Program-made: the position numbers and the translations under genes
In this document: piece after piece, positions 13,400 through 63,207 of the stretch
Layout: each line of letters starts with the position of its first letter
How positions within the stretch are numbered: the first letter of the stretch is position 1
The notes under the pieces: model-generated
Told to the model about the DNA's origin: nothing
Databases searched by the model: none
What the model saw: the letters and a program-made list of their open reading frames with translations, nothing else
Origin: Schmidtea polychroa
Taxonomy: Eukaryota
Direction of reading: 5' to 3'
DNA: 64,000 nucleotides
NCBI GenBank assembly: GCA_044892525.1
Contig: CM097885.1
Coordinates: 19,532,001 to 19,596,000 of the forward strand

Positions 13400-14692
13400 T
13401 CATCGTCGTTTAAGGAGTTTCTGGAAACTATTTCGAAATTCTCTGTTAAGAATGGTGTACAAAATCGGGTTTATAGAACTGTTGGCATAGCCGAACCAAG
13501 TGACAATAATTTGCAGCCAGCGATAAACTGGGCAAATGGATTCGCTACATAAAGCTCGCACCATGTACATAATAGTGAAAGGAATCCAGCATAAAATAAA
13601 AATAACCATTATTAATAACATAATTTTCGTGGCGCGAGTCTCTCGTTTTTCAGCTCGAACTATGCTATTAGCTCGTCGTCGTTTTTTGTAATTGGATCTG
13701 TAGCTTTTTTTAGTGAATTTCTTTGTATCCTCATTGGGGATGAGTTCTGAGTTGTTTGTGTTTAATTTCATCTCCCATAAAGGTGTCTGTGGCAGCAGAA
13801 ATTCCACTGATATGCATCGTAGACCCTGTTTGGATTTCTTTTTGGAAATTGAAGATGCTATGGCTTTCAGTTCACTCGTTTGCACAGAACAATCGGGATC
13901 CGAACTATTTTCATCGGTTTCGGTGTGAGTTTTCATTGAAGAAATAAATTTTGGTTTTAACAATGTCGCAGTTGGTTGGTTGTCTGACGAGTAATTATCC
14001 TCTGTATTTTGAGTGTCTGATTTGGAAAAGAGGTTCTTTTTTTGATTGATAATTGTAAATATTCGAATGTATACACCTGACATTATGATTAAAGGTAGAA
14101 TGAAAGATCCCATTGCGGAATATATTACATAATACGGTTCATTGAATAACTGACACTGATATTGATGGGTGCTGTTGTCGTATTGTAAATTATTAAAAAA
14201 CTTTATAACGGGGTTTTTAAAACCATTTCCAGTCCAGCCAATAATTTGTGGGATGCATATTATTGAAGATAAAGACCAAACGACAATAATGTAAGGTTTC
14301 GTCCGTCTGACGTGAGAACTAGACCTATACCAGATTGGAAACTTTGTGGCGGTGTAACGATCACAGGCTATCATCACCAGACTCCATACAGAGGCTGTAC
14401 AATACAAAACATCAGTATTGAGCCAAATGTTACAAATGTGAACTCCAAATGGCCAGTGTCCACAAAAGTCATTGACAATCGCTAATGGTAAAACTGTAGC
14501 TGCCAATAACATGTCACTCAAAGCAAGATTGCCGATTAATAAGTTTGCAGTTGTTCTCAGAAATCTGTTATGGGAGATTGTTATAATGATGATCAAATTT
14601 CCTATGATAGTCCACAAGGTTATCATTGAAGGAACAATTGAAAATATATACAATGCCCAATCTGGAATGGATTCCATTTCAGAACTAATCAA
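13400..14692 (-). CDS. Class A GPCR, biogenic amine receptor (tyramine/octopamine/adrenergic-like)
   Basis: Uninterrupted 430-aa ORF with 7 TM segments: GN (TM1), LALSD (TM2), amine-binding Asp in DVLYCTAS, DRY, TM5 YSAMGSFILP, long ICL3, CWIPF, WFGYANS and NPILY. First ATG is at 14677; an upstream exon is possible. Confidence 0.95.
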   Translation of the reverse strand: MISSEMESIPDWALYIFSIVPSMITLWTIIGNLIIIITISHNRFLRTTANLLIGNLALSDMLLAATVLPLAIVNDFCGHWPFGVHICNIWLNTDVLYCTASVWSLVMIACDRYTATKFPIWYRSSSHVRRTKPYIIVVWSLSSIICIPQIIGWTGNGFKNPVIKFFNNLQYDNSTHQYQCQLFNEPYYVIYSAMGSFILPLIIMSGVYIRIFTIINQKKNLFSKSDTQNTEDNYSSDNQPTATLLKPKFISSMKTHTETDENSSDPDCSVQTSELKAIASSISKKKSKQGLRCISVEFLLPQTPLWEMKLNTNNSELIPNEDTKKFTKKSYRSNYKKRRRANSIVRAEKRETRATKIMLLIMVIFILCWIPFTIMYMVRALCSESICPVYRWLQIIVTWFGYANSSINPILYTILNREFRNSFQKLLKRR

Positions 14693-16920
14693 AAGAACTA
14701 TTAATGAAAAGATTTTTAAAATAATTTAAAAATAATTCAGTTTAAAGTGACCATATAAATATATTTTTTGATTTGACAATATTAGAAAAAGAAACTCACA
14801 TATTTACTACCGATTTCAGTTTTGAAAACTATATAAATTTGAAGCATTTTATTTATTTGAAATTGTGTCAAGAAATTATTTTGTTTTGTTTCTACTTCAT
14901 TATTCTTACAATAAATTACACTTTATAAACTCTCTATTAACTTCACTTTGTATGTATGTTTCAATGTTTGTATGAGTCACGTAAATCTTGTGGCGGCAAA
15001 TTAACCTACTTCCCGTGATTTGATCGACCTGAAATTTGGCAGATAGATTAGTCGTCCAGAACAATGCACTCTTTTAAAATTTCAGATCGATCGAAGGTGC
15101 TATAGAATACTTTTTGAAACATTTCAATTTCATTAATATTTTCAAAATTTCTTTCAAAATATTAATAAAGTGGTCCTTTCAAAGTAATTTCTTAAATAGG
15201 TGATTTTTCATAATATTAAATATTTCATAGCATTGAACACATATTGAAATTTTAATTTTGAGAGAATGTAAAATAAAGAGAAAATATTAAAAATTATATT
15301 TTTACGGTTAGTTTTCTATCAGTTAATTACATTTAAAAAAAATTTAAATGATAATTTAAGCCTTTTGCTGCGAATAATATATTTAATACAAATGAAAGGA
15401 TACAGAAACCTTTTTTAAAACTAATATAAAAAATTAATTTTAATTTTAAAACTAAAAATTGTTTTTATACAAAATATTTAACAAACAAACATCATCCCAA
15501 ATATTAAATATACAAGTTAATTTATTATTTGGGATGATGTTGTTTGTTAAATATTTGTACAAGATTGTTAACAATTTTGTGCGTTTTATTAATATAATTT
15601 TTATATCAAAACGGATCAAAATCACTTGAAAAAGGCAGTGCCGAAAATTTGTGAATATCAAAATGAGAATCGATATATTTACTGATTTCAAGCTTTTTAA
15701 TAAATTACATTTTTATATGATTAAATAAAATGTTTTTTTAAATTTTTATAAAAATATCTTTTTTGATACAGTTTGATTACGATTATTAGTGGTTAATTTG
15801 TTTGAATATTATTATTTTCATTTAGTTGTTATTAATACAACTATTAGTCTGAAGAAGACTGTTAAACGTTGTAATTATATAGAAATGTTATATTTTAATA
15901 TACTTTGTTGGTGATTTTCTATTTATATATACATTGATCTCACCAAAGCTTGCATATGAATCAGTAAATATATCGATGTTTAAAAAGGCAGTGCCGAAAA
16001 TTCGTAATTATCAAAAACATTGAAATATATATATGTTCTATTATTATGTTCAAGAAAATATCCCAAAACCCCTTTCAAATCATAATAAAAATTCATGCTA
16101 ATGACTAAAAATATATAAATATTTTATACTTCGATTTATGCTATATTTTTTGTTTTTATACGGATAAAAGAATATTAAGTGAATGTTTTATTAATATCCA
16201 CCAAAGCAAAGATTTTAATGGGAAAATGTTCCCAATTACTTAGTTCGGAAATCGAATATATTTTGCCCTCTTGAAATTCAGTAACATATTTGTCATCAGT
16301 TAATGGGAAAAAGATATTAAATTCAACAAGGCATAGAATAGAGAAGATTATACCAGTTCATTTGACTGTATGAAATTAATCATATCCCCAATAACGGTTG
16401 ACAGATAACACGCGGGAAAAAACAAAGTTGAACAATGAATTCCCTTTACTACAAAATGAATTTACAATAGATTTGAGTTTGTAATTGAATTCTTTTCGCC
16501 AATTACTTCAAGCTATTACTTTTTTCTGAACAATTTAAAGACCGTGAAACGAAATTATGAAGAAAAGTAATTTTTATTTTCGTTTTTAACAAAATTCATT
16601 TTTTTAGATTCATCCAATCGGAATTGATTTCTCCCCCCCCCCCTAATAAAACGGATAAATTCAATTTTGATCATGTAATAAAAACTATCATTTCCTCGAA
16701 CACAGTTGTTTGAAATATTTTTGTAGAATTTATAAAAATATTATTTGTTTTAATTAATGTCAAGAAAATAATTTAGATATTTTTTTAGTAAAAAAATTCA
16801 TTATCAGCAGCAGAGGATGCTAAGGTTTTTCATGATCAAAGGTTTATGGTAAAAAATGAGATCGAGGAATAGATTATTCGAAAAAATATGCTATTTTTAT
16901 TTATACAAAAATTTTTATAT

Positions 16921-19948: not shown

Positions 19949-20686
19949 TGAATAAGTCCAATAACAATTATCAAAATTTTATTTCCCGCCTCTACAGGGC
20001 CGCGTGGATCAGTTTTGAATAATACCAGTTTGTCCATTTCAATGTCATGTCCAATGTCAGATTTTACTCGAGCTGCTTCCATTTGTGCACGATAAACTTG
20101 CGATCGACAATCAGGGATCATACCAATCATAACACCTCCAGTACTTTCAGTAATATTAAACGATCTCGTAGCTGAACTCGTCTCAATCATTTTATCGGGA
20201 ACTTTTCCTTGGAAAACAGTATAAATGAGATCGCCTTTCACAAAGTTAATATTTTGAAAAGATGTAAGACAGAATTTCTGATCACAACCTACATCACATC
20301 GCAAATTCATTTCGACCGCCATTCTTTGAATTTCATTCATCATAATCTAACCGATTTCAATTCCAAATACCTTCCAAAATCGCCGTTTAAACCACAATCA
20401 ATTTAAAAACAACTCCAGAAATCACAACAAAATTAAATCCAGTTTCTACAACAATTAATTTTAAACTACAAACCAAAATTTAGAACAATTCACCACCAAA
20501 TCAATGATTTCTACAAAAACTAAATCAAAATTATACTTACAAAATACCAAACCTACCAACTCTTCGCGTCTGTGTGCGCACACCAACCAGAATCGGTCTA
20601 ACCAGACCGCGCACACAGACGCGATAGAAAAAAGGCATGCAACGAACTGCCAGTCAGAGGCAATCCCCCTCTGACTGGTCGAAACA
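19949..20686 (-). repeat. 3' LTR of the BEL element (738 bp)
   Basis: Near-identical to 23681-24573 apart from two missing 78-bp units, one substitution and one 1-bp indel that I could see. Confidence 0.95.
19999..20268 (-). pseudogene. Proteasome alpha1 (PSMA6-like) fragment within the 3' LTR
   Basis: QGKVPDKMIETSSATRSFNITESTGGVMIGMIPDCRSQVYRAQMEAA...FKTDPRG aligns by eye to PSMA6 [47 protein letters not shown]...YKCDPAG. Confidence 0.85.
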
Positions 20687-20698
20687 TTTCCCCCCTCC
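20687..20698 (-). other. Polypurine tract
   Basis: GGAGGGGGGAAA on the minus strand immediately before the 3' LTR. Confidence 0.9.
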
Positions 20699-20955
20699 TT
20701 GATCCCTTCTAGCGGATCAACCACCCATTTACTTTAGGGGAACCTTTCTTTTTGCATATCTCCAATACCTCTCACACACCCATCTTTCTATTGTATAGGC
20801 CGCCGCACCACGCACCTTTTTCTCCTCCCACCATCGCCATACTCGGCCAAGCCCCTGTCACTGTTCATTCTGCTTAGGTTCAATATCTCCATTCTTCTTC
20901 CTTCATTCTTCGCCAATTCAATAGTCCCCACTTTTCCCTGTTGCATTTCATTTAA

Positions 20956-22155
20956 TTAAGGGGAACCAGGTGAATAGTCTTCAATGATATCATCTAAAGC
21001 AGACGTTGGTTGAGTGAATGTATTTTGTTCAGAATCTTTAGCTGTGTCGGATGTATGACAATTAACAATATCGACTCTAAGATCACTGTCATTGCTCTCA
21101 GAATCTGGCATAATTCGATCAGTTTCTAAATGATTTTCTGAGGAAGCAGAATCCGCTTGAATATTAACTACGTCTTCCATGTTTTGAAAATTATCTACTA
21201 CCAAAGAATTCGGTCTTTCGATAACATTAATGTCGACAACATCTGTGCCTAAATAACTATTATGATTTTCATTCTTGTCTGACACATCTACTTCAGTTTC
21301 ATCATATTTACTTTCAAAATTTTCTTCTTAATTGTGAGTTTTGACAATATTTTCTGATTCATCTGCTGTAACTTGGTCTCCTTTATCAAAATCTTTGTCT
21401 AATAGTTCAGTATTATTTTTTACAAATTCAGAATAATTATTCTCGTTCTCATTGACTCGATTTTGCTCTATTTCATCTTGATTTATAATATCGTTAGATT
21501 GTAAATTATCCCATTCATTGCTTTCACTATCTCCATCTTCGCTAGCATTTTTGTTTTCATGTGTTTCATCATTTTCATCACATTCTTTAATATAATCCAT
21601 TTCTTCAGAATTATCTACATCATGAATAATCATTTCTCCGTCATTTTCATCTTTATTATTTTCGATATCTGAATCCTTTTTTGAATCGGAAGGATTTATT
21701 ACATCTATGGAATCTATTTCGTTATTCTCAAGGAAATTTTGTGGATTACCGTCATCTTGAGTAATATGCTTTAATTCATCACAATCCTTTATTTTGTCAT
21801 AATTGTTAAATGGGTTTTGATTAAAATTAGATTCGTCAGTTCCTCCAAAATGGAATATTTGCCCATCTAAATGACTCTGAGCTCCTTGCTCCTCATTAGA
21901 TGTCTTACTAATGTCGAGTTTTGTGTCCTCAATTCCCCGCAATGCATGTAACTCGTCATTTAACATTTTCGTTACTGCAAAATAACTCCGAGCCAAATGC
22001 GAACCTCTTGGAGCTTGATTTCTTGCAATTGGTTTTCTCTCCATGAAGTTTGTGAACTTCTTCAATTTCCCCACATCCTTCCTACTCTCTGGAATTCTCT
22101 CCCCAAACAATATATTCAAGGCTTTTCGATGCCTATCGGCTTCTTGTTGATCCAA
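20956..22155 (-). pseudogene. Gag tail running into a D/E/N-rich coding segment that replaces pol
   Basis: ORFs 21328-22155 and 20956-21285 are in the same frame, separated by one TAA; no protease, RT or RNase H motifs. Confidence 0.7.
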
Positions 22156-23027
22156 TCGGCTAGAGTTTGTACATTTCCTTCTCTCCCCGAATCACAATGG
22201 CGTGACCACTGAATCAGCATGGTCTCTGGCAACTTCTTCAGCAGTTGATGATACAACATTCTGTTGTTCAACTCGCCTTCCCTCTTCTGTTCCTTGAAAT
22301 TCAGGATGAGGTTTCCCAGCAGCTCTTCAAACCGCTCTAGGTCCTCCAGTACGTTGAGCCTCACTGGAAAAAACCTCTGCACCGCGTCCAGCATCATTGA
22401 ATAGGATCTTTCTGGTCCCCCATACCTCTCATCCAGTAATTTCATCGCCGCCTCGAAAGCCTGCGAGCCATATCCAATATAGGCAATCAATTGCAACGGC
22501 TTCCCTTCCAAGTACTGTCTCAGGTACAAGTACTTTCTCTCACTCGGCTCATCTGTGTCCTCGATGCAGGCTCTCACAATTGCCCTCCATCCAGGATACT
22601 CCATTACCTTTCCATTAAATATCGGCAGCTGTAAGGGTTTCAATCCCATTATGAACTTCGGTTTTTCATTGGGCTCTTCATTCCTAAATGATTTCTCTGG
22701 GACCTTCCGCGACTCTACTCTAAAACTTTCTTCCTTCTGCGTGAGGACCAGATCACCGATTCTGCTAAAATCCGCTTCTATTCGTCTCAGATCTGCCTCA
22801 ATTTCCTTCGCTTCTTTCTCCCGTCCTAACTCCAGAGCATTATTCTTCAGCTTCTCAAATTCGTTCATGACTTCCTCATACTTGTCTTCGTATGCCTCCA
22901 TTCTCCTTTGTTCTTCCCCATGGTCCGATCCATCTCCTAAGGCCCGGTTACGTAGACGCCCTAACGAAATCTTCCACCCGGTTCGTCTTTTGTAACCGGC
23001 CTCGAACTCAGCATCTGATACTGGACT
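22116..23027 (-). pseudogene. gag: BEL/Pao Gag (DUF1759-like), frameshifted near 22145
   Basis: Coiled-coil N-terminus, [27 protein letters not shown] and LLDERYG motifs typical of BEL/Pao Gag. Confidence 0.88.
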
Positions 23028-23492
<465 letters not shown>

Positions 23493-23662
23493 CTAATAGG
23501 GTTAGGGAGGGCAGGCCTTAGGGGAAATGTTTCAAACAAATCAATACATGTCAATACATATAATATGATAAAAATACAATACATATTACATATATATATA
23601 ATACAATACAAATAAAAGACAAACAATATATGTAACATACCTTGTTCCGGCTGGCTAGCCGG

Positions 23663-23680
23663 AACCACGCTCTGCTACCA
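23663..23680 (-). other. Primer-binding site, complementary to initiator tRNA-Met 3' end
   Basis: TGGTAGCAGAGCGTGGTT directly after the 5' LTR; metazoan tRNAiMet ends ...CUCUGCUACCA. Confidence 0.85.
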
Positions 23681-24573
23681 TGAATAAGTCCAATAACAAT
23701 TATCAAAATTTTATTTCCCGCCTCTACAGGGCCGCGTGGATCAGTTTTGAATAATACCAGTTTGTCCATTTCAATGTCATGTCCAATGTCAGATTTTACT
23801 CGAGCTGCTTCCATTTGTGCACGATAAACTTGCGATCGACAATCAGGGATCTTGTCCATTCCAATGTCAGATTTTACTCGAGCTGCTTCCATTTGTGCAC
23901 GATAAACTTGCGATCGACAATCAGGGATCTTGTCCATTCCAATGTCAGATTTTAATCGAGCTGCTTCCATTTGTGCAAGATAAACTTGAGATCGACAATC
24001 AGGGATCATACCAATCATAACACCTCCAGTACTTTCAGTAATATTAAACGATCTCGTAGCTGAACTCGTCTCAATCATTTTATCGGGAACTTTTCCTTGG
24101 AAACCAGTATAAATGAGATCGCCTTTCACAAAGTTAATATTTTGAAAAGATGTAAGACAGAATTTCTGATCACAACCTACATCACATCGCAAATTCATTT
24201 CGACCGCCATTCTTTGAATTTCATTCATCATAATCTAACCGATTTCAATTCCAAATACCTTCCAAAATCGCCGTTTAAACCACAATCAATTTAAAAACAA
24301 CTCCAGAAATCACAACAAAATTAAATCCAGTTTCTACAACAATTAATTTTAAACTACAAACCAAAATTTAGAACAATTCACCACCAAATCAATGATTTCT
24401 ACAAAAACTAAATCAAAATTATACTTACAAAATACCAAACCTACCAACTCTTCGCGTCTGTGTGCGCACACCAACCAGAATCGGTCTAACCAGACCGCGC
24501 ACACAGACGCGATAGAAAAAAGGCATGCAACGAACTGCCAGTCAGAGGCAATCCCCCCTGACTGGTCGAAACA
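23681..24573 (-). repeat. 5' LTR of the BEL element (893 bp) with PSMA6-like ORF and a 3x78-bp repeat
   Basis: ORF 23551-24231 starts in the LTR, contains three IPDCRSQVYxAQMEAARxKSDIG units and reads through the PBS. Confidence 0.95.
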
Positions 24574-24587
24574 TTATTATTGTTTTA

Positions 24588-31788: not shown

Positions 31789-32141
31789 TTTATTAATAAT
31801 TAATATTTTATAATTATTTCAAAACAGTACAAATTTGATATTTGCAAAATAACTAGCGAGATGCCTGAACCTAGAGACATTATTAGTTGTAAAAGAAAGA
31901 TATATTTTCTGCATTGAAATTTTCCATTTAATTCTGATACATATCACTCAGTACATCGTTTTCAGATAAACTAATACTGACAAATGTCTACTATTAGAGG
32001 CTGGAAATTTCTAATTATTGGCAATATTGGTCGTAATTTCAATTTCTACAGAATAATTAATATTGAAAGTATTCATAATATTGCAAAAATGCAGAATGTT
32101 TTATGAAAATTCTCTCGAAATCTAATATTTAAATACCCATT

Positions 32142-34205
32142 ATGGCGTGTTCCAAAAAAATGAAGTTTGATATTCCCCAATTTCAGTCTTCTTGGACAAC
32201 AGATTACGGGTTTATTTTAAAAAATGATCGTACTATTTGCGCCTTATGTTTGGAAACTATTGTAACCAGAACGTCAAGTGTAAAGCGTCACTTTGAAACA
32301 AAACACAAAGGATCCTTCAAGTGTGAGACAGAAAAAAATGAATCTATTAAAAATGATGTGGCTCGATATGAGAAGCAAACAAACGTTTTTGTAAACATGA
32401 TCGGTAGAAAAAATCAAGCAACTGAAGCTAGCTACAAAATCTCACAGTGTATTGCAAATTTCGGAAAGCCATTTACAGACGGTGATTATATTAAAGAGAT
32501 TTTCCTCAAGTTCTCTGAAGTGCTGTTTGATGATCTTCCCAATAAAAACATAATTTTTTCAAGGATAAAAGAAATGCCTACTTCTGCTAGGACGGTTGAG
32601 AGAATATAAAAGAACAGCACACTGATGCGTTAAGGAATGCTTGCGTCCTGAGTATGTCACTTGATGAGAGTGTTGATATAAACGGGATACCACGTTTGGC
32701 AATTGTAACTAGACACGGTGATACTGAAATGCGTGAGGAATTATGTTGTCTCGAATCTATGCATGGTAATACAACGGGAAAAGATATTTTAAAAACGTTT
32801 ATCGATTATTTTGAAGAAAGAGGAATTGACATCAAGAAGATATTTGCTGTTACGACAGATGGTGCTCCTGCCATGTTAGGTAGGCTAAATGGATTCGTCA
32901 ATTTACTTGAAGAAATAATTGGCTATCCCATTTTAAAGTTTCAGTGCATTATTCACCAAGAGAATATTTGTGCAAAGATTTCAAAACCCGATCTTAACAA
33001 GGTTATGTCAACCGTATCTAAAATTGTAAATTTTCTTGTGGCACTCTCTTCTCTAAAAATAAGACAGTTCGAAGCTTTACTTCAAGAGATGGAGAGTGCA
33101 TATCATCATATACCCCTTCACTGTAACGTTAGATGGCTAAGTTGCGGTAAAGATCTGGTAAGGCTTGTTGGATGCTTCGACTCAATCAAAGTCTTTTTGG
33201 AAGAAAAATCTGAAAGATATCCCGAACTTGAAAACACACAGTGGCTTATAAAACTTATGTTTTTAACTGACCTCACAGCTCACCTCAGCGAGTTTAATTT
33301 ACGTCTGCAAGGTGTTGGACAAACGGTTATGGAGCTTTATGAGATATGGAAAGCATTTGTTTCCAAAATCGAGATCTATAATGAGGATATTAAAACAGGG
33401 AATCTTCGTTACTTCAAACATCTGAAACATTTCATTGAAAACTGTAAAGATCCAGATGTAACTCTTTGTGTAACTGATGAGTATATGGATGCACTAAAAT
33501 TAGAATTTTTGAATCGATTCAAAGATTTTAAGTCATTTGGCCCAATGTTTTCTTTTTTAATAAAACCAGATAATATTGAGAACTTCAATTTGCTTGTCTT
33601 TGAATGGATGGCCATTGAAGATTTTGAGATGCAATTAATCGATTTTAAAGTATCTTCATTATGGGTAAATAAATTTGCAGAGCTACGAAAAAGTTTGGAA
33701 AATTCTACCAACAATTATGAGCAATCAAATTCAATCCTAAATTGTTGGTCATCTCTCCCCGAAAAGTTTGACTGTCTCAAGAAAGTTGCATTTGCAATGC
33801 TTTCAGCCATTGGTTCGACTTATATATGTGAACAAATATTTTCGCATATGAAGTTCATTATTAATCCCTATTGAAGTCGGCTTACTACAGATCACTTCGA
33901 AGCATGTGTCCGAATTAAAGTCTCAAAATACGTTCCTGATATCCCAAAGCTAAGCAAAGCCAAGCAAGGCCAAGGATCACACTAGACTAGATGATTAGAA
34001 AATGATTTGTTGATATGAAATATTTGTATATTAAAATATAAATATTATAATTTCTTTTTACATTAAATTTGAATATTCCAACAAGAAGTGTTTTTGTACC
34101 TATCATTTAAAATTATGTAGTTGTCGCTTCTCGGCACGCGAAGAATAAAAAAATAAGAAAATAATGAAAAATGGCACTCCAGTACTAAAAGGTTGCCGAC
34201 CCCTG
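32142..34205 (+). mobile_element. hAT (Buster/SPIN, GTF2IRD2/EPM2AIP1-like) transposon, disrupted transposase plus right TIR
   Basis: BED-like CxxC...HFETKH, LDES, TTDGAP, CIIHQE, VRWLS and STYICEQ motifs; a break at ~32609 and a stop at 33874; right end ggttgccgacccctg at 34205; left TIR not found. Confidence 0.92.
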
Positions 34206-34684: not shown

Positions 34685-35071
34685 TTAAATAGTCTATTTA
34701 AATAAAGTGAAGAAATAAAATAGTTTGTAAATTAAATATTTAAATTTTATTTTACTATACTAAGAAAATAAAGTCCTTATCTCAATGATGTAAAATATTT
34801 CCAAATTAATTAGATGGATTCAATGTAATATTTAGTGATTAGAAATGTTCCTTATTATTGTTTAATTATATATTAATAGATTTAATAAAAAATTCTCAAA
34901 TATTTTAAACAAGAAATACAAATATTGAGTTTCGCTCAATTATCAAATATCCAATGAAAAATCACTCCACAAATGATCCTTTTTAAAAGTAATTAATTAC
35001 AAAAAATAATAAATTAAAATTATAATTTATAATAGAAAATCGCCAACTAAGTATATTAAAATATATCCCAC

Positions 35072-35097
35072 CTGATGATGACAGGAAAACTGTGAAA
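35072..35097 (+). ncRNA. Hammerhead-ribozyme-like core of a Penelope pseudo-LTR (possibly degenerate)
   Basis: CTGATGA-tg-ACAG-gaaaa-CTGT-GAAA just upstream of a Penelope-like ORF; stems I and III not established. Confidence 0.55.
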
Positions 35098-35149
35098 ATC
35101 GTGAAAAGAATGTTTGATTGGCGTTATCTTATAATTAAATCATTGCCCT

Positions 35150-36110
35150 GTATGTTTAACTATTTATTCAAAAATCATATTTCTATTGTTCCAATATTCA
35201 AAAGATTATTGAAGACTCATAATGCACTTAGAAGAAAAAAACTAGACATTTGTTTTCTTGAGACTTGTTTAGAAGAAAAGATGATTCCTTCGTTCATTTT
35301 TAAAATGAAACTTAGTGATTGTCTTTCAAGTAAAGATGTGCAAATAATACATAAAAGAACGTTAAGAAGAATGTTGGAATCAGAGAAGATAAGGAGAACA
35401 TCCTTGGATAAAAAACTATTAAATATTGGATTTACTTCAAATAACAATCAAATAACAAATCAGTTTTGTTTGCAGGTATGTGTTGAAGGGTGTATTAAAA
35501 ATTCAATTTCTCAGTTAAAATCAAAAGAGAATGCTCATATTAATAAATTAAAAAATTTGAGAAAATTATTTGGGATCTCTAAATTTGGTGTAGAGAATAC
35601 ATTATTAAACATGAGTAAATTTGTTTTGTCTGAAGAGGAGGATCGTATATTGAAATTTGGTCCCAATCATACCATTAACCCTTTAACAACTAAAGCCGTT
35701 TGCAGAGGTCATCATAAAAACCCCTTTCGATTCAAATCAAAACATTTTCGCGTTCCAAACAGTAAGACCGATTTTCGTCTGTAAAACCCCCCACCACAAT
35801 TTGCAGGTTTGAACACGATCAAACACATGGTTTGTTTGTAATGGTCAGTTTGGTTGACGACAAAACACCTCGTAATTCTATTTCACTGGTTTAATGGTTA
35901 AGAAAAGAATTTATGAAACAAAATTATGTGCGAAGATTGAAAGTTTCTACTTTCATATACTTAGATCGATGAAGGATATTAATACTAATAATGTGAAGAG
36001 TGTGTTGAGTTCGAGTACGATGGAGTATATTGATAAAAATAAAAAGCAGAATACTAAAGATTTTACTGTATTAAAAAATTTAGCTAAAAAAGACCTAAAA
36101 TATCTAAAAA
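35150..36110 (+). pseudogene. Penelope-like element ORF N-terminus (RT absent)
   Basis: FLETCLEEKMIPSF, NMSKFVLSEEEDRILKFGPNH and LKNLAKKDL match the pre-RT region of Penelope-like ORFs. Confidence 0.75.
35679..35897. mobile_element. TTAA-specific insertion in the Penelope ORF
   Basis: Flanked by TTAA with imperfect TIRs; removal rejoins ...GPNHTI-KKRIYETK... in frame. Confidence 0.75.
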
Positions 36111-37134: not shown

Positions 37135-38609
37135 CAGCGCTTCTCAACCGTTTTTGGCTTATATTAGAAAAAAAATTAAAATATTAATACTCGCGTATTT
37201 GTTATTATTTTAAACTTGTTCGAACACTAAATAAATAGCAAATAATGTTTCAAGGAGTATGCTCAGAATGTGTATTGATGAAAAGTAAAACATTTATTAT
37301 AGTTACATATATTTTAATAAAAAACGAAATGAATATACACTATAATATTTTTTACATTAAAATTTTTCATTATTTTTAACTTAACTTATTACATTTAGTG
37401 AGATCCTTGAGCTTGCTTTGAGGCGCATAGTTTTTTGAAGTCAAGTTCGATTGATGCAAGGTTATAATCTTAAATCTGGAGCTGCATTCAGCTTATTACG
37501 GCATTTGTTTTTAATAAATAGATATGAAGAGAATGCTCTTTCCACCAGTACTGTACTTGTAAATGTTAACAAAACGTTAAGCGCTTTGGCAGAAAGCAAT
37601 TCATATTCGGTGCTGATATGTGACCAAAAGTTAATAAAATATTTTCTTTTAAATTCGACTTTCAAAGTAGAGTCATTTGAAATTACAATTAAGTTCTCTT
37701 TTTCAGTGATTGATAATTTAGTTATTCGAAAGTATCCGTCATTGAAAGGATTTGAAATCCAATTGTTTCCTACATCAGGTTTGTGAAAATACTTCTCGAA
37801 ATTTGATTTTAGCTCTTTTAAGTGTTCAGATATGTTGCTCAATTCTCTGGAGAGGCAAAGTTTATTCTCTGATAGGAAATTGTGCAAAGTTTCAAATACC
37901 TCCGGTTGACCGTTTTCAATACATGTTCTCCTAAAATTATTTTTTTAATCATTGATTCAATTTTATCCGAGACATTGAATATCGATTTGGAGTTATTTTA
38001 AAGTGCTAAATTTAGATTGTTTGTACGTAGGAAAATGTCTGATAAATACGCAAGCGTCTGAAGTCAATTACAGTCGTGAAACTTGGAAGCAAGTTGAAAA
38101 GGATGTTTTTCGAAGAAAGCCTGTACTTCATGTTTAAGCTCGAACAATCGGGTAAGGACCTTGCCTCGAGATTGCCACCTTACCTCTGTATGATATAGCA
38201 GAATAGAATGAACACTATCAAAATCTACACAGAGCTTTAAAAATTCTCGAGTTGGTTGAACTTGACTTATAAAATTAACCACTTTCGTAGCGTCGTCAAG
38301 AACAAGCTTCATTTGCACTGGAAGGTGCTTAGATGCTAAACTTTGCCTGTGGATCAACAGTGACTTCAACTTATTTTGGGAGCTATCTTTGTAACATTGG
38401 GTCCATTTGAATTCTAACACAACCCGTTGTAATGTGATGATGCAATTCCGAGTGGCACACATAACTTTGAACAATATTTTGTGTATAAATAGTGAACGTT
38501 AAAACAAATTTTTGTCAAATATTTGCCACCGCTTTGAAACTAAATTGAGGTAGGAGTTACATTTTTAACATCCGTCATTACTAATATTTTTTCGCGTTGG
38601 GAATCGCTG
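37135..38609 (-). mobile_element. hAT Buster-type (ZBED5/SCAND3-like) deleted element
   Basis: TIRs cagcgcttctcaac / gttgggaatcgctg, TSD cgctatag/tgctatag; HRQSLA, HTEVRWQSRG and STVLVERAFS motifs. Confidence 0.9.
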
Positions 38610-49104: not shown

Positions 49105-50717
49105 TGGTTTTGGTGATGCAACAAGTTAGTGTTCCCATCAATTTATTTCATTGATCGATAGCTTATTTTGAAGCTTAGTGCAAGACCTTTCGAATGAGCT
49201 ATATGGTCCGTTAAATATCATCACCATTAATATTGACAAGGTTATTAACATTTTCCCAAGACCATTTTCAAGGTCATTTGACTATTTTATTATTATTTTT
49301 AAAAGTATTATATTTTCAAGGTCATTTTTTCAAGGTCAATTTTTTTCAAGGTCATATTTTTTTTCAAGGTCATTTTTTTTCAAGGTCCTATTTTAATTAA
49401 TTGGGATTGATATCAAAGGTTATTTCTTTAAATTATTTTATTTAAGAAGTTATTTTATTCATTGTGGGGATATCAGTGAAGAAAATTTATTATTTTAATT
49501 AGATTTCTAGAAATTGAATCGGTTGAATATTAAGGGTAAAATCTATTGAAAGAATATTGTTATCGGATGGATAAATCTTTCAATGATATTTTGCTAAATT
49601 ACCTTTGCTAAATATTATTTTAAATGACTAAAAATGAGAAAATTAAGCAATATTCATAAATTAATCGCACACAATATCCATGTTTTGGAAAAAATTACTC
49701 AAAAATCCCTATTTAAAAATGTTAACCTATACGACCATGTATTTCTCACGAAGTTATATTAACTATTGTAATGAACACTAGATGAATAAATTATCAATGA
49801 AATGCTAAATATGCATATCTTACTTTTTGCTAAATATTATTTTAAATAACTAAACATGACAAAGTTAACCAATAAATTAGTCGCTCGAAATAAGAATTCG
49901 GTAAGTTATATTCAAATTATTCACGAATTTCTGATATCTATGATCATCCATTTCTCACTAAATTACCTAAGAACTTTTAAATAATATACATATGCCTTAA
50001 TTAATATACCCTTGCGATATGTTGAATGTGAGCAGTACCCTTACGACAAATACACATAGGGGGACAGAATATTTTGTCGGATAAATTCAAACTATATATA
50101 AAAACTTACAATATGCTACGGTTTTTATTGATTAATTTGTTGTATATTGCATTGATACAATCAATGGACAGAAGAAAAGCATCATTTAGTCATTATGATT
50201 TATAATAATTGTAAATATAATTGTATATATAATTTTAAATTTCCATATATAACACTATTTAAAAAATTAATACAAATATTAAAACAAAATGAATTAATAA
50301 TGAATATGTTTTAATCAAAAAGTATTACAATAAAACAATAAATTTATAAAAACAAATTAAAACATTTATTTACGAAACAATAATTACCAATACTACTGTA
50401 ACACATAATGTCAACTTTAAAATATTGGTTAGGGTTTCTTCAGCTTTTCCAGCATCTTCATGGTTCTTGCGAAGATCTGATTTCCCGTTTTGATGAACTC
50501 CTGGGTATATTTCATTATGAATAATCTAAAATTAATATCATATATTATAAATACCATTCATCATATCATCAACATTTGGTAGTTGCGCCCAATATATTTA
50601 ATTATCAAGATGATTTCATATCATTCAATGTTTGAAAATTTTCTACATTATAGTACCGTCATTATGTATGGTAATAATTCATATGACTTTGATATTGTAT
50701 TGATTTGTATTGAGAAC

Positions 50718-50987
50718 TTACATGTATATAGTATGATATTCATTAATCAGTGTTGAACAGGCTTGACAATTGTGAACATTCTTCTCGTGACACTTAGAAC
50801 AAACAATTACGTGACCACACGGTAAATACAAAACCGAAACTTGATTTTCTTTACAGATCGAACAAGTTAAATACATTTTCTTAACATCGTTCAGTTTTTC
50901 CGTTAACTTATTTTCAATCAAATCAGCTTTTGCTATCCATTCATAAATCAATCTACTATATCCCGGTTTCAACCTTAATTTCATCAA
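50718..50987 (-). CDS. Small protein with an IAP-type C-terminal RING finger (no BIR domain seen)
   Basis: CSICKENQVSVLYLPCGHVIVCSKC......CQACS C3HC4 pattern at the extreme C-terminus. Confidence 0.7.
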   Translation of the reverse strand: MMKLRLKPGYSRLIYEWIAKADLIENKLTEKLNDVKKMYLTCSICKENQVSVLYLPCGHVIVCSKCHEKNVHNCQACSTLINEYHTIYM

Positions 50988-54818: not shown

Positions 54819-55957
54819 TGTAGTGAGCCGTTACACGGCCTTAACAATATCTATATACTTATTATACTATATTATATTATATTATATTATATATAAATGC
54901 GCGGTCACCAACGAATAAGGACCAAACAGAACACAAGTATAGTCAATCAAAAGTCGTGCGATCAGCTAATACTTCTACTTATCAATCAGGCTCTATTAAT
55001 CAATCTCAGACGAGTAAAGCAAATTCGATGCCATGTTATCATTATCAAGATAAACTGTATTCGGCTCCCAATAGTTTTAGTGTTGGCTCTCATAGACCAA
55101 CACCCTCATCCATTACAATTCGCGAAAGACGGAACAAATCCTAACAATAATATGAACCCGAAAAGATCTTTTTATCAAACCACCACACGTCTTTACAAAT
55201 TCTGATCAAGGTGATAATGCAAAAAAGGATCAGAACGGCAAAGGATATACATTTCCTCAAATATTGTATGCGAATGAGAATGGTCAAAATGGTTCATGGA
55301 CAAATCGGCAGGCTGTAAAATCTTTAGAAATAATCGGACTATATGAAATTATTATTTTTAGTTAACATTTTGTAAATGAGAAATGCCTGTTGAATATGTT
55401 TATCTGGTCTGATTATATTTTCATTTTTTATATAGTTTCTATAATATATTTTTGTTTTACTTAAATAAGTGAAAATGGTAATTTAAATAAAAATTGTGTA
55501 AATCGAATTTATTATATAAATTGTCTGACTTTAAATTGAATTTAATTACTTTTCTTCTCAAATGATTTTAAAATTATTTAGATTACTGATATTGTTAAAT
55601 TTCATAACCTCGAACAAGGAGGAAGTATGTAAGGATATTAATTCATCTGATGATAGGTATTCACAAATCGTGTTATTGAATCACCTTCCATTTGGTCTTG
55701 TTAATAAAACTAATATCATACAAAAGATAATCATGCTAGATGAGTGGGACGAATGTATTAAATATTGTTGTGACTACAAACAATGTGACGCGGTTTTGTT
55801 CAATACTACCCATTGTAAAATAATTCATTGCGAAAATCCATCATTATGTCAGCCAGAAAAAAAGAAAACTGAAGAATTATTTTGCGTTTTCTCGAATAAT
55901 GGTCAAAGAAATGATTCTATTGCCAAATCACCAGAAAGGACTACGCCAACCACAACA
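54819..55957 (+). repeat. 5' LTR (1139 bp)
   Basis: Matches 62085-63207 except for about three substitutions and a 16-bp indel. Confidence 0.97.
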
Positions 55958-58549
55958 TTGGTGTCAGAAGTGCCAGAACAATGTTCAAGATTTGAACATT
56001 TAGAAACTTATTTAGCGGCTAATATCATTGCTAAATCCAGATTACAGGAAATACAATCTATGTTAGTTTCTCATAAACGAACAGTGGAATTACGTCAAAA
56101 TATGTTCCATATGCTTTCCAAAATATTTACTGAATTAAAACTTTCATCAAAATTTAATCCTATATCCCATGATATTGATAGGCTGATAGATCATTTGATA
56201 ATTGCTCATTCCTGTTGTTTGTCATCAAATCGAGAAGAGTATATCAAATTAATTCAGACAATTCCAGATCGTGATTCTTTGGATCCCGTAGTCGTTCTAT
56301 GTGATTCCATTTAGAGCCCTGCAAATATCACAGATAATAATCATATTCCAAATGGTCAATTTCAAATTTCTGACCCGATAAATAAATCGTCTTTCAAATT
56401 TATCAGTAAAAGTATTCAATTACAATCTGAATCATCGGATACTAAATCCGAATTTTCCCTATTCAGTGCTTTCAATAGCTCAGCTGGTAATGATATTACT
56501 GAATTCCACAGTACACTGAATTCCACATCTCCCCTGTTACGGCTTTCAGATCAGAAATCATTTATGAACAGTTTGAATTCAGTTGGTTCGTCGAATTCTC
56601 TGCTGGAAAGTTTCTGCCAGTTAAATTCTCAAAACCACGCCGCAATCAAGAATAACAACAATAATAATCAGTCATACCATCACAACATCAATCAACAGGC
56701 AAACAACAACGGTGTGCTTAACTACGGTCAGTATCAGGATCGAAACGAAATGGATATAAATCGCATATTTGGCTCGGAGAAACTGAATTCACATTACGAT
56801 CAGAAATATAAAGATACAGCCGATATAGATTTTGATTCGATTAATGTTTCCCGGCAAGCATTGGCTGAGATGATTGCCGTTGAAAATCGTAAAAAAATGA
56901 CTCCGATCAATAATTATATACCAAATAACAAATTGCTAACGAGTGAGGTCTTATACACAGCCCCACAACGCATCATGCTTCGACCAAATCCAAATGAATT
57001 CTTAATGCAACAGAATAATGATTTTTTCACATTAAACTCTCGTGCACCGGGACAGCCATTTATTCACGATAATAAACCATCTCCCAGCGAATCGAGACTC
57101 AATCAAGCAATGCCCGTGTCAGCACCGCCAGGTACCTTAGATCGATTACCTCTAAATTATATTATTATATTATTAAATTATACTATATTATTATTGATTT
57201 ATATTATTATTGATATCATATATAAAATTATAATAAATTATTTAAATAAGCATCAGCCCACACGAGAGGGTAGCGCCGCACCGGGGCCCAAAAAGTTCCA
57301 AATATTACTAGAAAACCCTGGAACAAATAAGACACAAACCGTTTCAGTTGACACAGACACTACAATTAGAGGTCTTTCTAAAAATTACAGCATATTGACT
57401 AATCACAAATGCCGTTTTCTCTTGTCGTATAACGGCAACATTATTTCCGACAGTCGTACCTTGGGCGACTATGGAGTGACACCATACAGCGTCATTCATT
57501 GTTTGTTGCCATTTTTTGGCGGTTCCTCCGATTCGGAGAATGACTCAGGCAGCAACCCCAAACAGGCAAAACATAAACGTAGGTCCAACAACCAGCGATC
57601 AACGTACTTATGTCAATATTTTTTGGATGAGAATAACTCTCCACTTACTTGGCTGATAGCTACCGAACTAGCACTCGAGGGAATCGAGGTAACCAGTTCA
57701 CGAGACAAATACTGTCGCATCTTGCCGTTGATTCCGCCGACGATATTATGTAAACTTTCGTCCGTGATCCTTCGCACTTCGCCTACTAGCGTAAAAAACC
57801 CATATGAAGAATTGCGTACGGCAATCCTCGATATTTTTAAGGAACCTACAGCTGCCGTCTTCACTAAATACTTTAAGATGCAAACTTTGGGCAGCAGGAA
57901 ACCATCACAGTTCTTGCAACACGCCATGGCGGAACTAACGCAAATACATCCGGAGGCTGCGGCGGATCAAAAACTCTTGAGGCAATTTTTTCTGTCCGCT
58001 TTACCGCCACACGCACAACAAATTTTAGCGCTTTCGTCAACAGCAGACGTGGTAGAGCTAGCAAAGATGGCCGACAAGATTAACGAAGTCGTGCCACTTG
58101 GTCCGCAACCAACTTGCTCTGTGCAGTTAAGTAGCAGCACTAACCCCGAAATTTTACCTTCTTCTTCTTCTTCTTTGAAACCTTCGACCGAAGAAGCCTT
58201 ACTTTGCGCTATTACAGGCCTCACTAAACGCATCAGCGAGCTTGAGAATAGCATGTCCACCAGGCGGACAAATGACGACAGGCAATATGCCCAAAAATCA
58301 CACTTTGTGCAAAATACTCGTCAACGTTCACCTTCCCCTGCAACCAGGAACCTGTGCCGTTTCCATTTTAAGTTTCGTAACAAGGCACGGTTCTGCCATC
58401 TAGGTTGCAATTGGCGAGATAAAGCACCATCCTGTCAGATACTTGACAAGTGCATATACCACGACAGGTTCGGAGATAAAGCCTTAAAATGCTTCGAAGG
58501 CTGCTCCAATTACACAAAACCTAAAGCAAACAATCAAAAAAACTTATAA
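55562..58549 (+). CDS. gag: Extended Gag polyprotein frame: signal peptide-MANEC-linker-[TAG]-N/Q-rich region-hydrophobic segment-UBL-Gag
   Basis: ORFs 55562-56314 and 56564-58549 are in the same frame and 56315-56563 is stop-free, so the only interruption is TAG at 56312-56314. Gag motifs NPYEELR, LGSRKPSQFL and two CHCC knuckles. Confidence 0.8.
55959..55972 (+). other. Primer-binding site (tRNA-Leu type)
   Basis: TGGTGTCAGAAGTG one base after the 5' LTR. Confidence 0.85.
57296..57523 (+). other. Ubiquitin-like domain, 76 aa, ending FFGG
   Basis: FQILLE...KTQTVSVDTDTTI...LSYNGNIISDSRTLGDYGVTPYSVIHCLLPFFGG, compared with ubiquitin [34 protein letters not shown]. Confidence 0.9.
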
Positions 58550-58582
58550 TGCCACCACTTCTAGCGGCAGAGGTGGGAGGCA
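58537..58582 (+). promoter_or_regulatory. -1 programmed ribosomal frameshift signal (gag to pol)
   Basis: A AAA AAC heptamer at 58537-58543, then a hairpin tgcc-a-ccacttct...agaggtgg-ga-ggca starting 6 nt downstream; pol is in the -1 frame. Confidence 0.8.
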
Positions 58583-61500
58583 AAATTTCATCAAAATCAG
58601 ATTTATTTTTAATAGAAGCAGAGTCAAACGCTTTTAATATATTGTCGTCTCCTTCCAACAGACTAAAATTCCTTGTCGACACTGGTTCCAGCTTGTCGAT
58701 CTTACCTAAAGAGTACCTTCCAGACCTCAACACTGTCGATATTTCTTTGAAGGCCGCAAACGGTAGTGTTGTTGAGACTTTAGGTTCAAAGACAATTGCT
58801 TTCTCGTTGCCATTTCTGTCCGACCAATTATTTGAGTGGAAATTTTATATAGCAGAGGTTATTATCCCCATATTAGGATCTGATTTTTTAAGCGCTAACG
58901 AACTACTCGTAGATTGCCATGGACGCACTTTAAGGATAAATAACCAATTAAACTGCAGCACTATTCCCTCAAACATCTTTGAAGATCCACAGCGGATAGG
59001 AACGGACGATATAAATACTACTCCGTCGAAAACGGTTATAACAATCGAACACCCAAAAATAGCCTTAGATATTATTAATAGGTGTTTTAACACGCCAATA
59101 AGTGACGTTTCGAAGCCGCTTTACTGCCACGTGATCGACACAACTTCATCTTTACCAGTTAGATGCAAAATTAGACCACTGTCGAATGAAAAACTCGAAT
59201 TTGTACGTTCCGAGTTCACTAACCTCTTACATGAGGGTACCATTCGGAGATCTAAATCTCCATGGTCATCGCCATTGCACCTGGTCCCAAAAAAAGATGG
59301 CACTTTCCGTCCGTGTGGCAACTATCGAAACCTTAATGCTATTACGGTACATGATTCCTATAGCATGCCGCTTGTTAGTGATATCCTTCACCGTCTTTCA
59401 AAGGCAAAGATTTTCTCCACAATCGACCTCGTGAAGGCGTACCATCAGATACCCGTGCGAGAGTCTGACATAGAAAAAACAGCCGTAATAACTCCGATCG
59501 GACTTTTCGAGTACGTGCATATGCCTATTTGGCCTTCGTAATTCTGCACAGACCTTTCAAAGGTATATTGATCAAGTCTTAATGGACCTGCCTTTCGCAG
59601 TTCCTTACATAGACGACATTTTAATCGGATCACCTGATTTAGAGACGCATATAACCCATCTGACAAGAACTTTAACAGCACTTCAGCAATACAACCTTAA
59701 GGTAAACGTTGATAAGTGTACCTTCTTCCAACACGAGACTCGTTTTCTGGGACATTTAATTTCCGGAGATGGAATCCGACCTCCTCCGGATAGACTAGAT
59801 ACCATAGCCAAATTCCCACTTCCAAAAACAGTTTCACAACTGAGAAGTTTTTTGGGAACGATAAACTATTGTCATCGTTTTATTCCAGGGGTTTCTGACA
59901 TTTTGTCACCTCTTTCAGGTCTTGTTTCAAAACCAAAAAAGTCTTTAGTGTCATGGAGCGATACCACACTCAGTGCATTTGAAAACGCTAAGTCGGCACT
60001 TTCGAAAATTCAAACACTCCATTTTCCCAATGCTGATTTACCTTGGAGTCGGACCACTGATGCATCAAACGTTGCTATTGGTGCAGTATTACACCAATTA
60101 CATAATGACATTTCTGAACTCTTAGAGTTTTTCTCAAAGAAACTTTCTTCCGCACAACGGAAATATTCGGCTTTCGACCGAGAACTCTTAGGCATATATC
60201 TGTCAATCAAACATTTCAAGCACTTGCTTGAAGGTCGTCCTTTTGTCATCTACACTGACCACAAACCGCTAACTTATCTTTTTGGAATGAAAGACCCATC
60301 TCCACGACAACAGAGGCAAATCAGTTATATTTCAGAATTTTCTTGCGAAATACGCCACATTGCCGGCAAAGAAAACGTTATTGCAGACTGTCTTTCCCGC
60401 AGTACCAACGCTATATTGCACGATCCGATTTTTCCAGTACAGTGCCTCCGCGACAATCCACCTTCGGCAAAAGATCTAGCTGCTTTTGGCGATAAGCTTG
60501 AAATCGTGGACGGAGTACACTTTGACTCGTCTTTATCAGGTGTTTTAAGACCGATTTTGCACGATTCCTTACGGAAATTAGCTTTCCACTCCATTCACGA
60601 CTTACATCATCCAGGTTCGTCGGCTACCTTCAACCTATTGCATTCACATGTGGTTTGGCCAGCAATGAGGCACTATATTAAATTGTGGGTGAGTCAGTGC
60701 ATCGGTTGTCAACAACACAAGATCACTAGACACACTAAGCCACAGATGATTCACTATCCGACCGGAAATAGGTTCGAAATTCTTCACATCGACCTGGTCG
60801 GCCCCTTGCCTTCTGATCGTGGTTTTTCTTACTTATTAACCATGATTGACCGGAAAACGCGTTGGTTTGAGGTTATACCTCTAAAAAGCATTTCTGCTGA
60901 AATTGTAGCAAATTCAATTTTGCAACATTGGATTTCTAGATACGGTGTTCCAAAATCAATAATCACAGACAGGGGATCTCAGTTTGAATCCCAGCTATTT
61001 CAACAACTAACTGAAAAGCTCGGTATACAACACCTCCGTTCAACTGCTTACCATCCTCAGACAAACGGCATGATCGAAAGATTTCACCGTACTTTGAAGA
61101 CTTCTCTTGGAATACTTTCATCGAGACTTAATTGGACTAAAGCTTTACCTTTTGTCCTTCTTGGTTGGCGTAACACACCCTCCAGGACTACCGGAACTAC
61201 ACCGGCACAGTTACTTTTCGGTTCTTCAACATCGTTACCTAACGAATTAGTTGATTTCGATAACGCTCCTACCTTTGAGGAATTAGATATGGCTAGAGAT
61301 CATTTTCTTTCGATCGATAGCAACCCACAGTTTTCGTATGCTTCCTCATATACACCGTACGTCCCAAAGTCCTTCAAGGACGCAACTCACGTTTATCTTC
61401 GTAATATTACGGATTCAGGTCTCAAACCGAGATATTCGGGGCCTTACAAATTGATCGACATTAAGGATAACAATGCTCACATCGTTATTAACGGTGTTAC

Positions 61501-61915
61501 CCAAAATATAAATTTGTGCCGACTTAAACCTGCTTTCATGATTTCTGATGACGTGGACGAAAACAAACTTCACTCTGATTTAGAGAAAGTCTCAGTCGAA
61601 CCCATTCCAACTACGTCGAACGAAAACCCTTCAGTAGAACCTGCCACAGACTCAAACGAAATCGCGCGTACCTTGATCACAAACTACCAACGCGATATAA
61701 AGTTAGCTACAGAGAATACACATCCAGCAACAACAAATCCACTAAATCTTCGCTCAATTGTTTCGAAACCCGACAAGCAGCAAACCGCGAAAAATGTGAA
61801 AAATAGTGATAAGATTTGGGTGCGCCAAATTGGTGAAGACATTTCCAAACCTCCAAGACTTGCCAGAGTCTATTCCAATGAAAATTTGACACATCTGATG
61901 CTGAAATTCACTTAA
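58549..61915 (+). pseudogene. pol: Pol (protease, RT, RNase H, integrase) with a 1-bp insertion at ~59527
   Basis: LVDTGS, IDLVKAYHQI, MP(a)FGLRN, YIDD, TDAS, HHCC, HIDLVGP, TDRGSQF, MIERFH and GPY motifs. Confidence 0.95.
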
Positions 61916-62084
61916 CTTTATTCCATGTGATCAATTAATTCATCAATCGCCGATTTCCTTTTTAGACACTATCCACCTTTGATAAATTGTCACTACTCTT
62001 CGACTTACATCTTGTTTCTAGTAGATCTTTCATCAATCTCTATTCTTGAGTCCCTGTGCGCTCCGCGACTTCCCGTGGGGCTGA

Positions 62085-63207
62085 TGTAGTGAGCCGTTAC
62101 ACGGCCTTAACAATATCTATATACCTATTATACTATATTATATTATATTATATTATATATAAATGCGCGGTCACCAACGAATAAGGACCAAACAGAACAC
62201 AAGTATAGTCAATCAAAAGTCGTGCGATCAGCTAATACTTCTACTTATCAATCAGGCTCTATTAATCAATCTCAGACGAGTAAAGCAAATTCGATGCCAT
62301 GTTATCATTATCAAGATAAACTGTATTCGGCTCCCAATAGTTTTAGTGTTGGCTCTCATAGACCAACACCCTCATCCATTACAATTCGCGAAAGACGGAA
62401 CAAATCCTAACAATAATATGAACCCGAAAAGATCTTTTTATCAAACCACCACACGTCTTTACAAATTCTGATCAAGGTGATAATGCAAAAAAGGATCAGA
62501 ACGGCAAAGGATATACATTTCCTCAAATATTGTATGCGAATGAGAATGGTCAAAATGGTTCATGGACAAATCGGCAGGCTGTAAAATCTTTAGAAATAAT
62601 CGGACTATATGAAATTATTATTTTTAGTTAACATTTTGTAAATGAGAAATGCCTGTTGAATATGTTTACCTGGTCTGATTATATTTTCATTTTTTATATA
62701 GTTTCTATAATATATTTTTGTTTTACTTAAATAAGTGAAAATGGTAATTTAAATAAAAATTGTGTAAATCGAATTTATTATATAAATTGTCTGACTTTAA
62801 ATTGAATTTAATTGATTTTAAAATTATTTAAATTACTGATATTGTTAAATTTCATAACCTCGAACAAGGAGGAAGTATGTAAGGATATTAATTCATCTGA
62901 TGATAGGTATTCACAAATCGTGTTATTGAATCACCTTCCATTTGGTCTTGTTAATAAAACTAATATCATACAAAAGATAATCATGCTAGATGAGTGGGAC
63001 GAATGTATTAAATATTGTTGTGACTACAAACAATGTGACGCGGTTTTGTTCAATACTACCCATTGTAAAATAATTCATTGCGAAAATCCATCATTATGTC
63101 AGCCAGAAAAAAAGAAAACTGAAGAATTATTTTGCGTTTTCTCGAATAATGGTCAAAGAAATGATTCTATTGCCAAATCACCAGAAAGGACTACGCCAAC
63201 CACAACA
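62085..63207 (+). repeat. 3' LTR (1123 bp)
   Basis: Preceded by gtggggctga (weak PPT), followed by TSD ATATC. Confidence 0.97.

Follow-up and report, generated by a model that had tools for sequence, protein, structure and literature searches.

Maturation of Gag in LTR elements is textbook self-protease biology. In ubiquitin-ribosomal protein fusions, and in the ubiquitin-fusion technique, deubiquitinases (DUBs) cut ubiquitin-Gly-Gly-X unless X is Pro. A ubiquitin-Gly-Gly-X junction was also found in the 64,000-nt stretch of Schmidtea polychroa DNA analyzed here (the window). In the ribosomal fusions, ubiquitin is intact and N-terminal, whereas the ubiquitin-like domain (UBL) in the window was diverged and internal, and it lay directly before the Gag of a Ty3/Gypsy retrotransposon.

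Excerpts of the pestivirus literature describe cytopathic pestiviruses (BVDV Osloss, CP Rit) with insertions of cellular ubiquitin or UBLs (PMC8310069, PMC13517609) and host ubiquitin C-terminal hydrolases that cut Ubi-NS3 (PMC8310069). As far as those excerpts go, the likeness would lie in a captured ubiquitin that gives a polyprotein a host-protease site, makes an authentic downstream N-terminus and was acquired several times independently. The pestivirus inserts are recent, near-intact and carried by an RNA virus, whereas the UBL described here was old, fixed, highly diverged and placed before Gag behind exchangeable leaders. By analogy, the Gypsy UBL may work like a pestivirus ubiquitin insert, and its sequence signatures fit this idea.

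Among LTR elements, the CsRn1 clade (CsRn1, PwRn1, and AgCR) is defined, in the available part of its description, by a CHCC knuckle and has a tRNA-Trp primer-binding site (PBS) (PMC2582038). Our element shared the CHCC (Cx2Hx9Cx3C) knuckle, a -1 frame gag-pol overlap and a DUF7041-type Gag with that clade as described there (PMC2582038), but its knuckle was doubled, its PBS was not of the tRNA-Trp type, and a UBL ending in Gly-Gly (GG) and a long leader preceded its Gag. The giant planarian Gypsy elements Burro and GYPSM1 likewise have a polyprotein that has taken up host-like domains, one of them Ubi2/SUMO-like (PMC6431247). In those elements, however, Gag forms the N-terminus and the SUMO-like domain is part of the cargo behind it, and the available sections of the paper describe no GG processing ahead of Gag (PMC6431247).

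The word "ubiquitin" is absent from the main texts of a BEL/Pao survey (PMC3118150) and the CsRn1-clade paper (PMC2582038), and the available part of PMC9289625 held nothing relevant. Judging from literature listings, we found no description of a ubiquitin or UBL-GG ahead of Gag; Repbase Reports, subscription journals or supplements may mention one. Based on the sequence comparisons presented below, we regard a first open reading frame (ORF1) with UBL-GG before Gag as a real, selected variant of Ty3/Gypsy architecture.

The element and its ORF1

The element that housed the UBL was a young Ty3/Gypsy LTR retrotransposon with the structural features of that superfamily, namely LTRs with TG..CA ends, a target-site duplication, a PBS and a polypurine tract. 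The 5' LTR (54819..55957, + strand, as are all features of this element) was 98.3% identical to the 3' LTR (62085..63207, following the polypurine tract) when a 16-nt gap was counted, and the target-site duplication was 5 bp (ATATC). The PBS at 55959..55972, which was translated within ORF1, is presumably of the tRNA-Leu type. Because the PBS was not of the tRNA-Trp type, we call the element CsRn1-like rather than a member of the CsRn1 clade. The pol region (58525..61915, PR-RT-RNaseH-IN) had Ty3 RT as its best PDB match (E 9e-27). It lay in the -1 frame relative to gag, with the overlap at an A-rich slippery-type site, and was split over two frames in this copy, with the break near 59500-59540. 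No env ORF of at least 80 aa was present between the end of pol (61915) and the start of the 3' LTR (62085).

Two side observations were made on the noncoding features. The 3' LTR was missing 16 nt (at about 62800-62815) that the 5' LTR has at the ORF1 start-codon region (55545-55565). In addition, positions 57251-57292, just before the UBL, paired with positions 62046-62087, before and at the polypurine tract, in an imperfect inverted repeat of -56 kcal/mol, compared to -32 +/- 4 for 500 shuffles, none of which was as low. This repeat is a possible RNA cyclisation signal; it was not found in the relative L021, whose 5' end is missing.

ORF1 (55562..58549, about 996 codons) began with an ATG located in the 5' LTR, and leader, UBL and Gag followed in a single frame. 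The UBL occupied 57296..57523 and was internal, with a leader of about 580 aa ahead of it. It was 76 aa long, beginning with Phe (57296) and ending with Gly-Gly. The initial annotation had proposed a domain of exactly ubiquitin's length with a terminal GG, and this was confirmed, except that its end at 57526 took in the next codon (Ser) and the true end is 57523. The low identity to ubiquitin that it reported was also borne out: global identity was 30%, yet the Pfam ubiquitin model PF00240 scored 38.6 bits (cut-off 25.4, E 9e-10), and the RTLxDY motif was present as RTLGDY. The AlphaFold2 model (40-row alignment) was a beta-grasp with the order strand-strand-helix-strand-strand and block pLDDT values of 86-93, so the fold on which the annotation had made its reading depend was indeed predicted. 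Foldseek matched the model to the ISG15 C-terminal domain (TM 0.91, rmsd 1.2 A), and VIA gave Z scores of 13-14 to ubiquitin-fold chains.

Of the features of a conjugatable type I modifier, the di-glycine was present, sitting at the positions of ubiquitin residues 75-76, and the Ile44/Val70 surface was absent, with Ser at the I44 position in this copy. The tail of this copy was P-F-F-G-G, which differed from the family tail at the positions of R72 and L73. As annotated, a Ser/acidic linker followed the GG, and Gag came next in the same frame (57524..58549). This Gag had a DUF7041 capsid region, a coiled coil and two knuckles of the Cx2Hx9Cx3C (CHCC) type that marks the CsRn1 clade. Its mature form is predicted to start at Ser 57524.

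A single stop codon (56312-56314) interrupted ORF1. At that codon, the contigs of all four runs (4/4) had a different sequence, which makes the stop private to this copy. The Gag-side frame from 56315 to 58549, which contains the UBL, was uninterrupted, and there was no in-frame Met between 57110 and 57878. Over the 578 leader codons, the ORF1 frame had 1 stop, compared to 39 and 61 in the other two frames and 41 expected. When this copy was compared with the run contigs, the differences examined were the best-supported 40 of 336 and not a random sample; among these, 36 leader differences remained when the stop was set aside. Twenty-seven were seen in some contigs only, and 15 of the 27 were synonymous, compared to 26% expected. 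The other nine were seen in every covering contig and were non-synonymous without exception, which is what decay of this copy would produce. Indels inside ORF1 (10, among 12 of 41 rows) comprised six with lengths that were multiples of three and four single-base changes in two close pairs. We infer from the codon-level patterns that the leader is translated.

The leader began inside the LTR with a hydrophobic N-terminus and a MANEC/KIAA0319_N-like Cys-rich domain (55562..55891; PF23597, 31.4 bits, cut-off 27). The hydrophobic start, with a 9-residue hydropathy of about 2, appeared to be signal-peptide-like, and the leader also had an Asn/Ser-rich part. A 32-residue hydrophobic stretch located 26 residues ahead of the UBL (57152..57247) was a predicted transmembrane helix (KD19 2.59, shuffle p 0.007) and formed a helix in the model. 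In light of these predictions, the precursor of this element may have a type I membrane topology with the UBL and Gag in the cytosol. The hydrophobic stretch was 95% AT and open in the ORF1 frame only. We considered whether this AT-rich stretch might be part of an intron. A donor-like site was found at 57131 with five C/T/A-AG acceptors downstream, but four of the five were out of phase and the fifth was within the UBL, and none of eight joints in the run contigs used this donor. An intron was thus not supported.

Other parts of the leader were less informative. A helical domain that was death-fold-like by eye was predicted after the PBS (56000-56310). The first 250 aa had no PDB sequence match and a single-sequence model with a pLDDT of 41, which was unusable. 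In runs X9, X15 and X16, the leader (55935-57218) had far higher coverage than the UBL. Loose ends were present, and two joints left out about 975 nt in which the UBL lies; this leader may also occur in related families or in deletion derivatives.

Conservation of the di-glycine and exchange of leaders

A phmmer search of 1.84 billion representative proteins returned 2583 matches, and the best 150 were examined. From the lineage closest to this Gag among the matches listed, 39 relatives with 21-36% identity were aligned by hand; canonical Gags, polyubiquitins and N-terminally truncated records were kept out of the alignment. All 36 records that reached the site had GG at the aligned place (36/36), although most UBL columns were poorly conserved and identity in the UBL core drifted to 13-32%. 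For this reason, selection on the di-glycine was strongly supported by the alignment, and free variation of GG among relatives, which the initial annotation had named as evidence against its idea, was not found. That annotation had read the retained GG as a sign of selection for cleavage or conjugation. The inference of selection stood; cleavage was better supported than conjugation, since the Ile44/Val70 patch was lost and the residue after GG was small and never Pro.

The remaining aligned records were examined individually. P0017 had LLGG directly before its called Met, as seen in the DNA of locus L007, and the record of P0020 began with Met at the position just past the GG of its near-twin P0028. 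P0033, on a long deep branch, began at the primer-site peptide only 24 residues before the Gag core, which left no room for a UBL, and it probably has none. Four records outside the alignment (P0038, P0061, P0107 and P0153) also began shortly before the Gag core. As a control, we looked at 22 rows in which the search match started past the GG; 19 still carried GG, and the other three were later-starting records. The UBL profile matched none of 73 canonical single-knuckle Gags. Two knuckles were present in 30 of 37 family rows, and in a quick Gag tree with a midpoint root, the 40 rows of the UBL lineage were split from 12 canonical DUF7041 Gags with 100% SH-aLRT support.

Two relatives had a UBL much closer to ubiquitin. 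The domains of P0030 and P0046 were 72-75% identical to ubiquitin, and both proteins were nested in a 100%-supported subclade in which the other six members showed 21-29%. Their position suggests, at the level of sequence, that fresh ubiquitin was re-captured into the slot of a worn UBL.

Additional searches returned little. A metagenome motif scan gave 29 loci, three of which were true relatives (L007, L021 and L024); no viral contig matched; and a protein atlas returned only DUF7041 or DUF1759 clusters, at under 0.9. Word-indexed homology searches were insensitive: one gave six matches, another, run with the alignment, gave a single match, and a third gave one BEL Gag without ubiquitin. Rfam gave no match.

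Similarity between close relatives began at the UBL, and the leaders ahead were unrelated and often contained host-gene fragments. P0011 and P0013 were 91% identical over 450 residues, beginning with the UBL and running through to the end of Gag, whereas their leaders (about 870 and 820 aa) were unrelated. P0024 and P0026 were 62% identical from the first UBL strand on, with upstream fragments of Arp8 and Hsp90, respectively. Pieces of histone H2A, 5'-nucleotidase, Rrp44 plus CNOT1, and an SCC3-like gene were found in the leaders of other relatives. In the case of P0184, the nucleotidase piece came after the primer-site peptide and was thus inside the element; some of the other leaders could be read-through from flanking genes.

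The PBS-encoded peptide marked the LTR end in many relatives. It was translated in all three frames (xVSEV, WCQK, and GVRSG) among P0007, P0010, P0015, P0021, P0024, P0026-P0030 and P0046, which indicated that read-through of the PBS was common and frame-free. A membrane-like stretch was present in 11 of 22 leaders of at least 60 aa and beat shuffles (p<0.05) in three. Given this patchiness, the trait shared by the leaders was variability, not anchoring.

A candidate host-cleaved tag and its alternatives

We propose that the UBL is a captured, degraded ubiquitin that serves as a built-in tag, with a host deubiquitinase cleaving behind the GG to release Gag from whichever leader precedes it. 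The sequence evidence makes this the probable explanation. Several observations weigh against it, namely the P-F-F-G-G tail of this copy, the late-starting records such as P0033, the patchy occurrence of the membrane-like stretch and the single-base indels in ORF1. DUBs recognize the R-L-x-G-G tail of ubiquitin and fail on GG-Pro, and small N-terminal residues are stabilizing. In the 37 family rows, G76 and G75 were each present in 37, L73 in 30 and R72 in 24, with K at the R72 position in five more. The residue after GG was S, A, G, M, T or V in 30 of 37 rows, compared to 31% in the following linker, and was Pro in none of 37, compared to a 9% background; the rows are related and not phylogenetically independent, so nominal p-values for such counts overstate. 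What was conserved in the tail points to host DUB- or ULP-type proteases.

Under the proposed mechanism, translation of the genomic RNA from the LTR start would yield a leader-UBL-Gag(-Pol) precursor. Cleavage of this precursor behind the GG, by a host protease of the DUB or ULP type, would produce Gag with a fixed N-terminus and leave the leader-UBL portion behind. In this element, the signal peptide and membrane helix would place UBL-Gag on the cytosolic side of a membrane, and without the Ile44 patch the fusion would not be taken for a degradation signal. The tag would turn the 5' end of ORF1 into a free cargo slot. Translated host fragments may be kept there for borrowed start codons, avoidance of nonsense-mediated decay, membrane targeting or camouflage.

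The same cut could instead matter mainly for the free C-terminal GG it yields, with the leader-UBL portion conjugated to host proteins as an element-encoded modifier that carries host-gene fragments. The invariant GG, the intact fold and the presence of R72 in 24 of 37 rows are compatible with this alternative, and R72 matters for E1 choice. The surfaces used by E1/E2 enzymes and ubiquitin receptors include I44, V70 and R42, however, and these were mostly lost (kept in 2/34, 2/34 and 5/34 rows, respectively; K63 was kept in 1/34). The drift of the UBL core also argues against a modifier, and the preference seen at the position following GG is a property of the Gag product. We therefore consider conjugation unlikely.

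It is quite unlikely that the UBL stays uncleaved as a matrix-like or folding domain of Gag, with GG as a flexible hinge or kept for an RNA-level reason. UBLs often act as folding aids, and the model showed no evident matrix-like domain between the linker and the helical Gag core. A hinge, however, requires neither R-L-x-G-G at the C-terminal positions of ubiquitin nor a small, non-Pro residue next to it, and the linker after GG varied from 15 to 49 residues. As for an RNA-level reason, the GG codons differed among three DNAs, which indicated that the constraint acts on the protein.

The initial annotation had suggested that the FFGG tail suits the element's own aspartic protease. Such an enzyme is encoded by pol, and this copy does have Phe-Phe before GG, but Phe at the Leu73 position was found in 1 of 37 rows, namely this copy, and the family tail is R-L-x-G-G. 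The residue at the R72 position was basic in 29 of 37 rows and that at the R74 position in 15 of 37, and two members have near-true ubiquitin. Retroviral-type proteases favor hydrophobic P1/P1' residues, not Gly-Ser. Cleavage by the element's protease is thus very unlikely, and the suggestion was not upheld.

The least credible alternative is a degron that limits Gag levels via ubiquitin-fusion degradation: K48 was kept in 10 of 34 rows and uncleavable N-terminal ubiquitin fusions are degraded, but that route requires an uncleavable junction, whereas this UBL retains its GG, lacks the Ile44 patch and sits within ORF1 rather than at its N-terminus.

A second ubiquitin-bearing element and the wider implications

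The window contained a second LTR element with ubiquitin ahead of Gag, a decayed BEL/Pao-type element on the minus strand (19949-24575). It carried a PSMA6 fragment in both LTRs (E 1e-9; a 78-nt unit of it was triplicated in the 5' LTR), two ubiquitins and a DUF1759 Gag; an acidic ORF was also present, and no pol was seen. The section from 22116 to 24575 (minus strand) held the PSMA6 fragment in the LTR, a hydrophobic stretch, the two ubiquitin units and the DUF1759 Gag. The ubiquitin units ended at 23256 and 23028, both with GG, and were identical to ubiquitin at 63 of 67 and 57 of 76 positions. The frames were broken in this copy, and the link from the LTR ORF to ubiquitin was not continuous. 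This element and the Gypsy element had an LTR-borne host fragment, a hydrophobic stretch, ubiquitin-GG and Gag in the same order, but the BEL/Pao element had a DUF1759 Gag and two near-true ubiquitins, whereas the Gypsy element had one diverged UBL. We infer that the two arrangements had separate origins.

Other features of the window were a C-terminal RING of the IAP/MDM type (50718-50987, minus strand; PF13920, E 6e-10), with probable upstream exon pieces near 50420-50660, and a single-frame rhodopsin-family GPCR that was amine-receptor-like by eye (13400-14725, minus strand; PF00001, E 1.5e-55). Transposon remnants at 3653-4258, 32133-33874, 35026-35784 and 37462-38498 are, by motif, presumably Mutator-, hAT- and Penelope-like.

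A broader idea, which we offer as a tentative and rather doubtful one, is that ubiquitin was independently made a host-cleaved "universal adaptor" in two LTR-retrotransposon superfamilies. The 5' end of ORF1 would then be a plug-in slot for pieces of host genes and membrane ectodomains. In the Gypsy element, MANEC ectodomain, membrane helix, UBL and Gag would together make up a type I membrane precursor, and a host deubiquitinase would set the time at which the capsid is released from it. Such an arrangement might offer a way to membranes or neighboring cells without env, or might hide the element from piRNA silencing.

If true, handing the first Gag cut to host deubiquitinases would make the lineage depend on its host in a new way. 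It would account for the hundreds of captured host codons that elements can keep in frame at their 5' end with the capsid unharmed, and it would offer a testable path by which LTR elements capture genes and shuffle exons. As a set, the 37 diverged UBLs would amount to a natural mutational scan of DUB requirements, in which the tail was kept and the Ile44 patch dropped. Finally, the convergence of this lineage with BEL/Pao elements and with pestiviruses suggests that the design is a general one.
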